Source: Escherichia coli (GTDB lineage Bacteria; Pseudomonadota; Gammaproteobacteria; Enterobacterales; Enterobacteriaceae). Taken from it: 64,000 nucleotides of DNA. Below, one piece after another: positions 1 to 5,309 of this stretch. The stretch lies in assembly GCF_013122565.1 (NCBI RefSeq), contig NZ_CP053258.1; one strand, given 5' to 3'. The notes beneath the pieces were generated by a model. It made no database searches and had not been told where the DNA came from. It saw nothing but the letters and a program-made list of their open reading frames with translations. The first letter of the stretch is position 1. Every line of letters starts with the position of its first letter. The position numbers and the translations under genes are program-made.

Positions 1-119
1 TTAAAACCGCCACAATTCCTCTTATCGTGAGTGCGGCGGTCAGAAAATACAGCGCGATGACCATTACGGAACCCGTAAAACTCGATGGTAATGTAACGTT
101 AAGCCTCGTCTATTTATAA
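1..119 (+). CDS. fimbrial subunit-like protein, 3' fragment (5' end lies outside the window)
   Basis: Frame-3 reading ends ...PLIVSAAVRKYSAMTITEPVKLDGNVTLSLVYL then stop; this C-terminus closely matches the C-termini of the next two ORFs (LDGNVTFNIIYL, LDGNVTLSMVYI). Confidence 0.5.
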   Translation, partial: KTATIPLIVSAAVRKYSAMTITEPVKLDGNVTLSLVYL

Positions 120-139
120 CCATCAGGATGGAAAAGGTT

Positions 140-823
140 ATGCGTAAAATAATATTCGTTATTGCCCTGACAGTAACTATGATTGGCGTACAGTCGGCAC
201 ATGCTGATGAGGCAACAACGGCCCTGATGGTCAAAGGAAAGATCATCCCCGGCAGTTGTACGCCAACCCTTAGCGATGGTGGAAAAATAGATTACGGAAC
301 GATTTCATCGTCTTCGTTGTTTGATGACTCGAATAGCCTGGGCGTCAAAAATATGACGCTGCATATATCCTGTAGCGATAGCGGTTATGTTGGCTTTACC
401 GCAACAGATAATCGTAGTGATAGCTTGCCGGAACATATTGAGGTGGTTAATGTTAAGAATAATGATGATTATCGTTTGTTTGGGTTAGGGAAAACGGCAG
501 AAGATAAAGTTATTGGTGCATTTACCATTGATGTAGACACAACAAACATTAAGGTGGATGGAAAGAATTATGGTTTTGTTTATATTTTATACTCAACCAA
601 TGGTACATCATGGCTATCCAATACTGTAAATATTCGCAGTTATAGTGATAAAGCCCCTAATATTGAAGCACTGATTAATAAAACGGGTGTAGGAGTAAGA
701 GCATTTAAGGAAGCTGAAATTCCTTTGGTTATTAATACCTCCATTGTCGACGCACGAGATCTTTCAGTAACCGATAAAGTTATGCTTGATGGGAATGTTA
801 CCTTTAACATTATCTATCTGTAA
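140..823 (+). CDS. chaperone-usher fimbrial subunit-like secreted protein
   Basis: ORF track 128..823; the ATG at 140 gives signal peptide MRKIIFVIALTVTMIGVQSAHA. Cys pair in the mature part; C-terminal strand with penultimate Tyr, typical of pilus subunits; paralog of the 850..1575 product. Confidence 0.6.
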   Translation: MRKIIFVIALTVTMIGVQSAHADEATTALMVKGKIIPGSCTPTLSDGGKIDYGTISSSSLFDDSNSLGVKNMTLHISCSDSGYVGFTATDNRSDSLPEHIEVVNVKNNDDYRLFGLGKTAEDKVIGAFTIDVDTTNIKVDGKNYGFVYILYSTNGTSWLSNTVNIRSYSDKAPNIEALINKTGVGVRAFKEAEIPLVINTSIVDARDLSVTDKVMLDGNVTFNIIYL

Positions 824-849
824 TTACGTTGATAAGAGCCAGAACAAAA

Positions 850-2301: not shown

Positions 2302-2310
2302 GTCAGGTCC

Positions 2311-4734
2311 ATGCGTTATCCGCTGTTATTATTGCTGCTGTGGGGCGGTTATTGCGCCAGTGCAGTATCAGCCGAAGAGATTCAATTCGATACCGAAACG
2401 ATGAAGTCTCTGGGGTTGAGCGAGCGCATTGGCGACTATTTCGCCAAAGAAGCCCGCTTCCTACCAGGCGTCAGCGTGGTTAACGTCATCGTTAACAGCC
2501 ACAACAAAGGGCGTGTAGAGGTCCGCTTCAACGAACAGGGCGAACTGTGCGCCAACAATACGCTATTACGCAAAGCGGGAATTAAAGATCCCGAAACTCA
2601 CCACGCCGAAGAGGAGTGCCGCGACCTGCGCGTGAGCTACCCAACCGGCACAATAACGCTTTTTCCAAATGAAAGTCGCATTGAACTACTGTTGCCAGAT
2701 GAAGCGCTGGAAATCACTAACCTGAACATCAACGAATCGCAGCGAGGCGGTACAGCGGGATTAATTAACTACACGCTGCTTTCAAGCCGTAGTGAATATA
2801 GTGGTCAACAATCAGACTACTCACAAGCGACCTTAAATACTGGTATTAACATCGCTGACTGGATGCTAAGGGGGGGGCATATTTTCACTCGTATGGACGG
2901 GCGTAATGAGGTCAGCCGAATTTACACCTATGCACAGCGTAGCCTTGTGGATTATAAAACGCTGGTGCAGCTGGGCGAAATCAATACCAATAACCCGCTA
3001 CTTTCTGGCGCGGCCATCTATGGCATTCAGTTTTCGCCCGATAATGATTTAGTGCCACAGCAAAATAATGCGGTGGTCATTGGTATAGCGAATACTGCAC
3101 AGGCGAGAGTGGAGATTCGCCAGCAGGGCACGCTTATTTACACCACGCTGGTTCCGGCGGGACCTTTTGAGTTAACAAACGTCCCGGTCGTTAGCACCCG
3201 AAGCGATCTTAACGTTAAAGTTACCGAGACCAACGGTCAGATACGCAATTACACCGTAACTGCCGCTTCTTTTATGCAGCAAAGCGGCCAGCCGCAGGGT
3301 TACACCTTTTCCGTAGGGAAAACGAACAACACGGCTGGTTATATCATAGAACCATGGTTAGCTACAGGATCGGGTGGTTGGCGAATTAACCGCCACATCA
3401 CCAATAACGCCGGTTTTCTATTATCAGAAAAATATCAGGTTCTGGCGACGCAGGTCGAAATAATGCCTCTGGAAAATCTCCAGCTCACCGGGCAGTTAAA
3501 CACCAGCCGCGATAGCTGGCACCATAAGCAGGGGCAGTCCTGGACGCTGGCTGGCGCTTACAACGCGCCGGGTAATATTAGTCCGTCGGTTTCCGTTTCC
3601 CGCTATACCCAAGGCTATCGTGATTTTAGCGATGCGCTTTCTGATGAAGACGATATTGTTTATACCAAAGGCGATTATACCGCCAGCCTTAGGTGGTCAC
3701 ACTCCATGCTGGGCAGCGTTTCTTTCAGCTATTCCCGCAGCGAAGGTTTCACCTCACAGGATGATTCTCGAAACATTTCGTTGAACTGGAGCAAAAATTT
3801 TTCCTGGGCCAGCGTTTCCGTTAACTGGCAACATCAGCTGAATAATTCACACGATCAAGATAAAAACAACTTTAACGCTATACCGAATGATGGCGACACG
3901 CTTTATGTGAATGTCAGCATTCCGCTGGGCGACAGTATGGTAAATAGCTGGATGCGGCGCAACGGCAATCGTGAGACGTATGGTTCTTCAACCACGGGGA
4001 ATATTAATGAAAATGTTTCGTGGAACGCCTCGGTCGATAGAGATCAGCAAAACCAGCAAAATAATATCAGCGGCGGTTTGAGCGCGAATTTGCACTATAC
4101 GCAGATGAGTCTCAACGCCAGCACCTCAAATGAGGATTCACGCAACTATTCTGCCAGCCTGACCGGTGGCGTAGCGCTGCATGGTAATGGCATGACCTTT
4201 GCGCCGTATTCACTCCAGGACACGTTCGCCATTGTCACAACTGAGCCTGCATTATCCGGGGTTAAAATCAACTCTCAACAAGGCGCGGTATGGACCGATT
4301 TTACCGGCAGGGCTGTTATTCCGGCGCTTTCTGCCTGGCAATCCTCTCGCGTTGAAATAGAAATGGCGTCGTTGCCTAAAAACGTAGATGTGGATAACGG
4401 CCTACAGATGATTAATCAGGGGCGCGGGTCCGTTGGCGTGGTGGCGTTTAAAACGCTGACGCAGCGGCGCGTGTTGTTAAACGTGCGTTTGCCGGAGGGC
4501 GCATTGCTGCCAAAAGGCGTGGCGCTGATGGATGCGGACGGAAACTACCAGACGACCAGCGCCGATGATGGGGTGGTTTTTTTGAATGATACCAACGGCA
4601 AAAATAGCCTATTCGTTCATGATTCCGGCATGAAAGAGGGGTGCCGAATTGATTTTGAATTGGCAGAAGAAACCCGCGCCGATATTTTTTATGAAACGAT
4701 AGATGCCGTCTGCAAGCCAATGGGGGAACGATGA
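2311..4734 (+). CDS. fimbrial outer-membrane usher
   Basis: 807-aa ORF with signal peptide MRYPLLLLLLWGGYCASAVSA; size and operon position typical of an usher; stop overlaps the start of the next ORF (ATGA). Confidence 0.8.
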   Translation: MRYPLLLLLLWGGYCASAVSAEEIQFDTETMKSLGLSERIGDYFAKEARFLPGVSVVNVIVNSHNKGRVEVRFNEQGELCANNTLLRKAGIKDPETHHAEEECRDLRVSYPTGTITLFPNESRIELLLPDEALEITNLNINESQRGGTAGLINYTLLSSRSEYSGQQSDYSQATLNTGINIADWMLRGGHIFTRMDGRNEVSRIYTYAQRSLVDYKTLVQLGEINTNNPLLSGAAIYGIQFSPDNDLVPQQNNAVVIGIANTAQARVEIRQQGTLIYTTLVPAGPFELTNVPVVSTRSDLNVKVTETNGQIRNYTVTAASFMQQSGQPQGYTFSVGKTNNTAGYIIEPWLATGSGGWRINRHITNNAGFLLSEKYQVLATQVEIMPLENLQLTGQLNTSRDSWHHKQGQSWTLAGAYNAPGNISPSVSVSRYTQGYRDFSDALSDEDDIVYTKGDYTASLRWSHSMLGSVSFSYSRSEGFTSQDDSRNISLNWSKNFSWASVSVNWQHQLNNSHDQDKNNFNAIPNDGDTLYVNVSIPLGDSMVNSWMRRNGNRETYGSSTTGNINENVSWNASVDRDQQNQQNNISGGLSANLHYTQMSLNASTSNEDSRNYSASLTGGVALHGNGMTFAPYSLQDTFAIVTTEPALSGVKINSQQGAVWTDFTGRAVIPALSAWQSSRVEIEMASLPKNVDVDNGLQMINQGRGSVGVVAFKTLTQRRVLLNVRLPEGALLPKGVALMDADGNYQTTSADDGVVFLNDTNGKNSLFVHDSGMKEGCRIDFELAEETRADIFYETIDAVCKPMGER

Positions 4735-5309
4735 AAGTCTGGAATTTTCTTTTATCTTTAAGCGCAGGGGCAATGCTACTACCCGGCGTGCTGACCTCAG
4801 CATACGCTGAAACGGTGTGCACCTCGTCTCTTAGCGTAAAAACGTTAAATTATGGCCGGTTAACCCGCAGTGACATCGCTGCATCCCGACAAATGGAAAA
4901 TGGTCTGGCTGATGCAATAACGACAAAACAGGCGTTGTTAACGGTAAACTGTTCGCAACCTACGCGTCTGCGACTCTATTTTGCAGGAAACCACAACGAA
5001 AAAAAAATGTTCAGTCTTGGTCCCGCAGCTGCTTTTCGGATGACGGCAGGGCATGCCAATGTTGATGGGCAAGCCGTCCAGCTTCTTAGTCACCCTCAGG
5101 AAGAAGCGGCAAAAATAACTGACAGCGAGATGCAACAATCGATCAACCCCGGACACCAACTGCTTTTTATACAAAACAGCGAACTTAAAGGATCGGCATT
5201 TTCTTTACAGCTAACCGTCCAACCCCTGCTGGCGCACACGTTATTTTCTGTGGCGGACAAAACCGTTTTACAGTCAACGGTGAATATTGTCGCCGAGGCA
5301 CAGGACTAA
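4731..5309 (+). CDS. fimbrial operon distal secreted protein (possible tip adhesin or minor subunit)
   Basis: 192-aa ORF with signal peptide MKVWNFLLSLSAGAMLLPGVLTSAYA, translationally coupled to the usher; lacks the C-terminal ...VYL strand of the upstream subunits. Confidence 0.45.
   Translation: MKVWNFLLSLSAGAMLLPGVLTSAYAETVCTSSLSVKTLNYGRLTRSDIAASRQMENGLADAITTKQALLTVNCSQPTRLRLYFAGNHNEKKMFSLGPAAAFRMTAGHANVDGQAVQLLSHPQEEAAKITDSEMQQSINPGHQLLFIQNSELKGSAFSLQLTVQPLLAHTLFSVADKTVLQSTVNIVAEAQD

Follow-up and report, generated by a model that had tools for sequence, protein, structure and literature searches.

The β clade of chaperone-usher fimbriae, defined here as in earlier reviews and catalogues (PMC5216030, PMC3559732, PMC9238391, PMC3373541), comprises the gltF-yhcADEF locus of Escherichia coli and the stj locus of Salmonella. 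No β fimbria has been characterised, and the clade is described as one that 'lacks a typical adhesin gene' (PMC5216030, PMC3373541, PMC9238391, PMC3559732). Loci of this type are widespread in Enterobacteriaceae, yet this is the sole clade without a described fibre, structure or receptor, and a literature search joining DUF1120, the family of the K-12 subunits, with fimbriae found nothing. Here, we describe a β-class locus in a 64,000-nucleotide stretch of E. coli DNA (hereafter the window; contig NZ_CP053258.1 of assembly GCF_013122565.1). Positions 1–5309 of the window very likely contain the last 5.3 kb, at the 3′ end, of a six-gene β-class chaperone-usher operon that is intact and was acquired horizontally, and in which the last gene encodes the predicted tip. 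The operon adds a new and rare E. coli representative to a class that is known but has not been characterised, and does not constitute a new type of system.

Assignment to the β clade follows from several of the encoded proteins. The usher (2311–4734, plus strand; 807 aa) is full length, with the PapC_N, Usher (E = 3e-96) and PapC_C domains all present. It scores 931 bits on the NCBIfam model PRK15304 (curated cutoff 723), compared to 212 bits or less on all other usher models (FimD, LpfC, PefC, SefC, StdB etc.), which include those for named γ, κ and π ushers. PRK15304 also matches K-12 YhcD (1273 bits), the usher of a Salmonella stj locus (1173 bits), an E. coli usher designated P0027 and a Cronobacter usher. 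Over 788 aa, the window usher and YhcD share 43% identity (BLASTP), and placement of the former in the β subfamily is based on profile models and pairwise identity. The PapD-like periplasmic chaperone (1600–2301, plus strand; 233 aa, with an alternative GTG start at 1591) belongs to the YhcA subfamily. It matches PapD_N with an E value of 5e-26, scores 299 bits on PRK09918 (cutoff 183), a model that YhcA also passes, and is 53% identical to K-12 YhcA (BLASTP). All three subunits carry PF06551 (DUF1120; E = 1e-21 to 1e-24), as annotated on a public contig that contains the operon (L002), and show 27–35% identity to GltF and YhcF (BLASTP). No open reading frame (ORF) encodes a two-domain adhesin; the remaining gene specifies a small, YhcE-like, single-domain product and follows the usher gene, as in β loci. 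Judged by these E values, homology of the operon proteins to fimbrial components is far beyond chance. Classifying the usher and chaperone by Pfam and other profile models, a check that the original prediction had proposed, thus gives the β clade, and its broader call of an accessory chaperone-usher operon with three tandem paralogous subunits agrees with Pfam, NCBIfam and BLASTP comparison of the paralogs.

The window contains the 3′ five-and-a-bit genes of the operon, which the ORF map and sequence checks show to be co-directional and tightly packed. At 3–119 (plus strand, frame 3) lie the last 38 codons and stop of the subunit 1 gene, another DUF1120 member, ending in KLDGNVTLSLVYL before the stop codon (also read as KTATIPLIVSAAVRKYSAMTITEPVKLDGNVTLSLVYL). 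Contig L002 matches the window without a difference across 14 kb and yields the full six-gene operon, in which subunit 1 is complete (245 aa; L002 7072–7809) and the operon begins directly after phoU. The truncation is a window-edge effect, and there is no pseudogene; what had been reported as a subunit fragment is one inside the window, while the gene itself is whole. Gaps between successive genes are 20, 26, 24, 9 and −4 bp. The last of these reflects an ATGA start/stop overlap between the usher gene and the distal gene (4731–4734, plus strand; GGGGGAACGATGAAAG), an arrangement suggestive of translational coupling, which is preceded by GGGGGAA. The same 4-bp overlap is seen for yhcD/yhcE of K-12 and in four further loci (L003, L005, L006 and L007). 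Gene order, orientation, spacing and the ATGA coupling were as first described, with slight corrections to the coordinates. All operon ORFs are full length and the six genes are intact. Ratios of nonsynonymous to synonymous divergence (dN/dS) against the Salmonella ortholog range from 0.09 to 0.41 across the operon genes, indicative of purifying selection.

The nearest described E. coli system, gltF-yhcA-yhcD-yhcE-yhcF of K-12, shares with this locus its DUF1120 subunits, YhcA-type chaperone, YhcD-type usher and small YhcE-type protein, and likewise has never been characterised experimentally (PMC5216030). In K-12, one subunit gene lies upstream and one downstream, as opposed to three upstream and none downstream here, and yhcE is interrupted by the insertion sequence (IS) IS5, whereas the present operon is intact. 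We considered whether the operon might simply be a catalogued E. coli system, such as yhc, that the first reading of the sequence had overlooked. The shared class and architecture, including the 4-bp overlap of the usher gene with yhcE, speak for this, but identities are low (usher, 43%; chaperone, 53%; subunits and YhcE, 24–35%). At 24–53% overall, they are too low for orthology, and the chromosomal sites differ, with yhc downstream of gltBD (gltD-yhcG) and the present operon between phoU and yieH. Moreover, a sensitive blastn search of 5,426 complete E. coli genomes returned no match. In the portion of the 38-type E. coli catalogue of Wurpel et al. that bears on this point, Yhc is the sole β type named, and phoU and yieH are not mentioned (PMC3559732). 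Together, these data make oversight of a catalogued operon a very remote prospect, and bear out the statement that this is not a K-12 fimbrial operon. K-12 does have a distant paralog of the locus within this class, namely gltF-yhcADEF. The operon adds a further E. coli β type, distinct from yhc and from an stj-like type found near gltBD, at least with respect to the catalogue portion just cited. That stj-like type is represented by another β-type locus of some E. coli (L007 105–4617; GCA_032970605.1). Its usher, P0027, shares ∼40% identity with each of YhcD and the window usher, compared to 53% with its counterpart in the Salmonella stj locus. L007 adjoins gltD/gltB in inverted orientation relative to K-12 gltF-yhcADEF, being convergent with gltD.

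The closest relative is an operon of Salmonella, mainly of S. enterica subsp. indica (L003; ushers P0002 and P0247–P0260), with the same six genes, in the same order, at the same position after phoU, and with 78–92% protein identity. In Salmonella, yieH follows directly, whereas in the E. coli carrier an island of type III secretion system (T3SS) effector genes intervenes between operon and yieH; the leaders also differ in length by about 100 bp. Salmonella Stj is more distant. Its usher is captured by the same NCBIfam model, and its 189-aa protein passes PRK15301, which our distal protein matches weakly, but the ushers are only 39% identical and, in the stj locus that we examined, flanked by lplA and deoC, just one subunit is encoded upstream. 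Cronobacter (C. dublinensis, L005; C. sakazakii ESA_03512–03521) resembles the window in having several tandem DUF1120 'major subunit' genes before the chaperone and usher genes (PMC7545074) and a ∼181-aa YhcE-like gene after the usher gene; it differs in that its usher is 43% identical and its three subunits arose by independent duplication.

From the six-gene layout, the original prediction had guessed that this is an archaic (σ) pilus operon of the Csu type. The csu gene order is csuA/B-A-B-C-D-E, and the order found here, three subunits, chaperone, usher and distal protein, mirrors it. A second similarity lies in the chaperone. β chaperones lack the classical carboxylate-anchoring residues Arg8 and Lys112 and in this respect resemble non-classical, Csu-like chaperones (Pakharukova et al., PMC4654587). 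To judge from profile hidden Markov model (HMM) alignments, the same holds for the operon chaperone: the Arg of the CupB2 'GTRVVF' segment aligns to Ser/Thr in the invariant segment 'GMVPETS(V/L)L', and the Lys of 'IKLLVRP'/'FKLFFRP' aligns to Pro in 'IRQNIPVIIHP'. Both classical anchor residues are lost in these alignments, as reported for β chaperones. The F1-G1 loop is also short relative to that of Caf1M. Other evidence, however, contradicts membership in the archaic class. The subunits all belong to DUF1120 and none to SCPU, the family of the Acinetobacter Csu subunits; no subunit, nor the distal protein, matched SCPU (PF05229) at E ≤ 0.1 in the Pfam search. The chaperone profile is of classical type, matching Caf1M (1e-16), CupB2 (9e-12), PapD (1e-7) and FimC (2e-6) well ahead of CsuC (merely 8e-3). 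The usher satisfies the β subfamily model PRK15304, in line with Csu having an usher and chaperone of another clade. Finally, the distal protein has one domain of ∼166 mature residues, unlike the two-domain CsuE adhesin. In both structure and sequence, similarity to Csu is clearly below that to classical pilins and chaperones. Hence, the likeness of layout is real but provides no evidence of membership, and an archaic pilus is a reading to which we give almost no credence.

The three tandem DUF1120 subunits are 32–41% identical to one another (BLASTP E = 1e-33 to 1e-48). Subunit 2 (140–823, plus strand; PF06551 E = 1.7e-21) comprises 227 aa, or 231 aa if translation starts at an alternative ATG at 128; the start at 140 agrees with the gene call and with the Salmonella ortholog. 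Subunit 3 (850–1575, plus strand) comprises 241 aa, and the TTG at 829 that appears in the ORF list is probably not its start. Alignment substantiates the Cys pair and near-identical C-terminal strand noted earlier for these ORFs: the Cys pair is shared without exception by the three subunits and the distal protein, and the subunits end in the motif LDGNVT[LF][SN][LIM][VI]Y[LI]. At the other end of the mature protein, each subunit has an N-terminal extension of 16–17 residues before the first Cys, in which hydrophobic residues alternate and a Gly is conserved; that of subunit 1 reads STDQVTLTVVGEVIPGSC. In the AlphaFold2 (AF2) model of subunit 3, which has a predicted local distance difference test score (pLDDT) of 82, this extension is unstructured and the remainder adopts a pilin fold that matches FimI and FimA.

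Each subunit has a one-to-one Salmonella ortholog (86, 83 and 78% identical). Given this, it follows that the triplication took place before the E. coli and Salmonella operons diverged. Five tandem DUF1120 genes are present in a Kluyvera-like relative, three independently duplicated ones in Cronobacter dublinensis, and seven 'probable major subunit' genes are reported for C. sakazakii (PMC7545074). Since the Kluyvera-like and Cronobacter loci also contain multiple copies, tandem amplification of subunits is a trait of the family rather than a local oddity. The Kluyvera-like variant (L010 788–8453; L009 1–7442), whose usher is 74% identical to ours, lies next to acrZ-modABC, which together with its five DUF1120 genes indicates that subunit copy number and chromosomal site vary between genera. 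Within the operon, dN/dS is highest for subunit 2 (0.41), followed by subunit 3 (0.32), as expected for exposed, antigenically variable proteins.

The distal gene (4731–5309, plus strand) encodes a 192-aa protein of the YhcE family, with a single pilin-fold domain, which we predict to be the cap or tip of the fibre. It has no Pfam match and falls weakly on PRK15301 (E = 7e-14). A 189-aa protein of the Salmonella stj locus passes the cutoff of this model, whereas reconstructed K-12 YhcE is equally weak. Compared to YhcE with IS5 removed, the distal protein is 24% identical over 175 residues (BLASTP E = 7e-11). In every β locus that we examined (K-12, Salmonella L003, Cronobacter dublinensis, Salmonella stj, E. 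coli P0027 and Kluyvera-like; L003–L010), a gene for a protein of 181–193 aa follows the usher gene, its start overlapping the usher stop by 4 bp in most loci and by 22 bp in the Kluyvera-like ones.

Several lines of evidence relate this protein to the subunits. A profile of the distal family aligns to the DUF1120 profile in hhalign with 98.3% probability (E = 2e-14), from the first Cys through the C-terminal strand. A four-way alignment of the three subunits and the distal protein shows the Cys pair and ∼20 further invariant columns. The AF2 model (pLDDT 89) has one pilin-like domain, unlike a two-domain adhesin, with a strand at residues 184–191. Its best structural matches are to FimG (9.3), FimI (9.2), PapH (8.6), the pilin domain of FimH (8.6) and PapA (8.4); CsuA/B scores merely 6.4, below these classical pilins. 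We conclude from profile and alignment comparisons that the distal protein is a shortened, diverged pilin of the DUF1120/YhcE family. It had been suggested that the protein lacks the C-terminal strand. What is absent is the LDGNVT..VY (Gly...Tyr) motif of the subunits; a homologous strand is present, as indicated by the extent of the hhalign match and by the AF2 model.

The clearest difference from the subunits lies at the N-terminus. The predicted mature protein begins AYA|ETVC..., with no N-terminal extension. Among 109 YhcE-like proteins, the median number of residues before the first Cys is 4, compared to 16–17 in 13 DUF1120 subunits. According to the logic of donor-strand exchange (summarised in PMC4654587), a pilin-fold protein with no N-terminal donor strand of its own is a tip subunit; the distal protein has these features and is predicted to accept a strand. 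Because a pilin without a donor strand cannot donate one, it is placed at the distal end of the fibre, and we infer from the sequence and the model that it acts as cap, initiator or tip subunit. The earlier suggestion of a tip position is in keeping with this, though the missing element would be the N-terminal donor strand and not the C-terminal strand. Receptor binding is possible. As for other roles, that of a PapH-like terminator is unlikely, since a terminator must donate a strand.

YhcE-like proteins form a broad family, which falls into 462 clusters at 50% identity. Among its 150 best representatives, ∼25 are 340–410 aa long and match the profile twice (P0107, P0111, P0112, P0115 and others); in some β-like loci, these tandem forms might serve as true tip proteins with two domains. 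We tentatively propose that YhcE-family proteins are the missing tips of β fimbriae, i.e. single-domain, donor-strand-less, DUF1120-derived pilins that initiate and cap the fibre and carry binding specificity, a proposal whose chances of being right are a little short of even.

Assembly might then proceed as follows. All six products would be exported by Sec, and the YhcA-type chaperone would cap each subunit through donor-strand complementation. The three DUF1120 pilins would polymerise at the usher by donor-strand exchange, using their ∼16-residue N-terminal extensions. The distal protein, which would accept a strand and never donate one, would pass first through the usher and come to lie at the tip, possibly as the receptor-binding element. 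ATGA coupling would limit the amount of distal protein made and link it to usher synthesis. The data presented here establish gene content, family membership, intactness, purifying selection, pilin folds, where an N-terminal extension is present or absent, the insertion site and rarity; fibre production, the order of subunits in the fibre and adhesin activity are features that we infer.

A number of observations weigh against the idea of a tipped pilus. β-class fimbriae have never been observed or assayed (PMC5216030, PMC3373541), which makes fibre formation an extrapolation from other classes. The counts of residues before the first Cys depend on a crude signal-peptide rule. In a PDB sequence search with the subunit profile, the N-terminal extension aligned weakly to the FimG donor strand ADVTITVNGKVVAKPC (E = 0.11); the search returned nothing beyond this match, and there is no structure of a DUF1120 protein. 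The leader of the operon is 336 bp long, AT-rich and contains conserved blocks in common with Salmonella, but a promoter scan found sigma-70-like sites to be no commoner than in shuffled sequences, with none in the leader between phoU and subunit 1. The AT-rich leader suggests that the operon may go unexpressed under laboratory conditions, as accessory fimbriae usually do.

One could thus suppose that no tipped pilus is made, and that the operon is a silent relic or produces a thin or afimbrial surface layer, the distal protein being an accessory, regulatory or non-fibre component. Reviews point to the absence of a typical adhesin gene from β loci and consider that thin fibrillae or structures other than fimbriae may be formed (PMC3373541, PMC5216030), expression has never been demonstrated for a β member, the promoter scan upstream gave nothing above chance, and the distal protein lacks the conserved Gly...Tyr motif with which the subunits end. 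Against this, the six genes are intact and under purifying selection, and the distal protein has a confident pilin fold, the conserved disulfide pair and a C-terminal strand. In addition, its gene is retained directly after the usher gene in every β locus examined, and the breadth of the YhcE-like family, with its tandem two-domain forms, points to a conserved structural role. On balance, we regard the absence of a tipped pilus as unlikely, and favour a fibre capped by the distal protein. If that is correct, the operon, being intact (unlike the IS-disrupted yhc of K-12) and encoding three adaptor or shaft pilins, would be a tractable model for the β clade. Such a model would cover the sole clade lacking structural and functional data, with a chaperone that joins a classical fold to non-classical anchoring. 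It also yields a testable prediction of architecture, namely a donor-strand-less YhcE-type cap together with three polymerising DUF1120 pilins. For a specialist, the locus holds no surprise, and its practical value is modest beyond this possible use as an intact model for β fimbriae.

How did the operon arrive in this strain? The host is genuine E. coli, with dnaA-gyrB 99.0% identical to strains such as IAI1. Gene order on L002 is glmS-pstSCAB-phoU, the six fimbrial genes, T3SS-effector genes and yieH-adeP. Neither megablast nor blastn matched the operon in any of the 5,426 complete E. coli genomes, and database records of the identical usher number only three in E. coli (QJU26261.1/WP_171460098.1 and two more). 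Ushers clustering at 87% identity occur across S. enterica subsp. indica, in a few serovars of subsp. enterica and in arizonae, and those clustering at 74% identity include a Kluyvera metagenome-assembled genome. A scan of usher peptide words in one genome per species gave no confirmed relative, close relatives being too rare or divergent for exact words. Compared to F9792, the best-matching complete E. coli genome for the region, the carrier has an insert of ∼6.3 kb in place of a ∼93-bp spacer. The insert starts ∼3 bp or less from the phoU stop and ends ∼45 bp past the distal gene; its right end falls within 5310–5354, homology to other E. coli restarting at ∼5354–5356 (megablast). Alignments of the junctions revealed no direct repeats and no IS remnants. 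The carrier's flanks are 97–99% identical to F9792 right up to both breakpoints, and we therefore reject recombinational import from a divergent Escherichia.

What occupies the phoU-yieH interval differs among strains: cbrBC-yieKL-bglHBFG in K-12, T3SS-effector genes in F9792, and the fimbrial operon plus effector genes in the carrier. In Salmonella L003, whose flanks share ∼78% identity with E. coli, phoU and yieH border the operon directly. An operon ancestral to this interval, inherited vertically from the common ancestor of Escherichia and Salmonella and lost in nearly all lineages, would account for the identical intergenic position in both genera, for junctions free of mobile-element signatures or repeats, and for the lack of an operon match in plasmid and phage collections, which leaves no transfer vehicle. 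Synonymous divergence (dS) provides a means to distinguish these histories. Between the E. coli and Salmonella operons, dS is 0.25–0.63, mostly 0.25–0.42, compared to 0.81–2.9 for genes of the right flank (adeP, yieH, yieF, yieE, yidZ and mdtL). Because the GC content at third codon positions is low (34–56%, with weak codon bias), a slow synonymous rate is an unlikely explanation for the low operon values. Low dS and rarity together favour transfer after the genus split from an unsampled donor. Absence from the complete E. coli genomes, the ordinary E. coli flanks up to the breakpoints and the presence of the Kluyvera-like operon at another locus, acrZ-modABC, are likewise difficult to reconcile with vertical descent.

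The left flank pulls in the opposite direction. Values for pstB (0.50) and phoU (0.73) overlap the operon range, within which subunit 1 is highest (0.63), and the case for horizontal transfer accordingly rests mainly on the right flank and on rarity. We nevertheless consider an ancestral operon improbable. It appears that a rare E. coli lineage gained the operon by horizontal transfer, and a dS of about 0.4 indicates that the sampled Salmonella was not the direct donor. The phoU-yieH interval thereby offers a clean case of an operon common to two genera at one variable site.

A neighbouring site also differs in fimbrial content. Between glmS and pstS, the carrier is without the lpf-O113 operon that F9792 has (L002 1841–2155 versus L001 1–4327), so that different strains hold two different fimbrial operons at neighbouring variable sites around the pst operon.

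No terminator-like hairpin was found after the distal gene in a terminator scan (fold z = 0.34); the sole convincing hairpin is the phoU terminator (L002 6744–6768). Directly downstream of the operon lies a low-GC (∼30%) island of T3SS-effector-type genes (5667–12748). Its ORFs include one of 879 aa that carries the annotation 'type III effector protein' in F9792, one of 808 aa resembling EspY4 and, on the minus strand, one for a pentapeptide-repeat protein of 395 aa; one 500-bp segment (7811–8310) is merely ∼75% identical to F9792. For the biology of the strain, the operon is a candidate niche-specific adhesin locus that adjoins T3SS effector genes. Farther along, an effector gene of the ShET2/EspL2 family is found between tnaC and mnmE (22277–24463). 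It is 85–88% identical to the F9792 copy, whereas core genes beside it are 97–99% identical. Divergent effector genes such as this allele, and not the host, therefore largely explain the window-wide identity of 96.7%. Rfam detected no RNA family within the operon. Its matches in the window, all away from the operon, are istR (59860–59989), AsdA, antisense to the dnaA mRNA (29584–29664, minus strand), a ROSE_2 thermoregulator (45110–45182) and the small RNA ES036 (35141–35183, minus strand).

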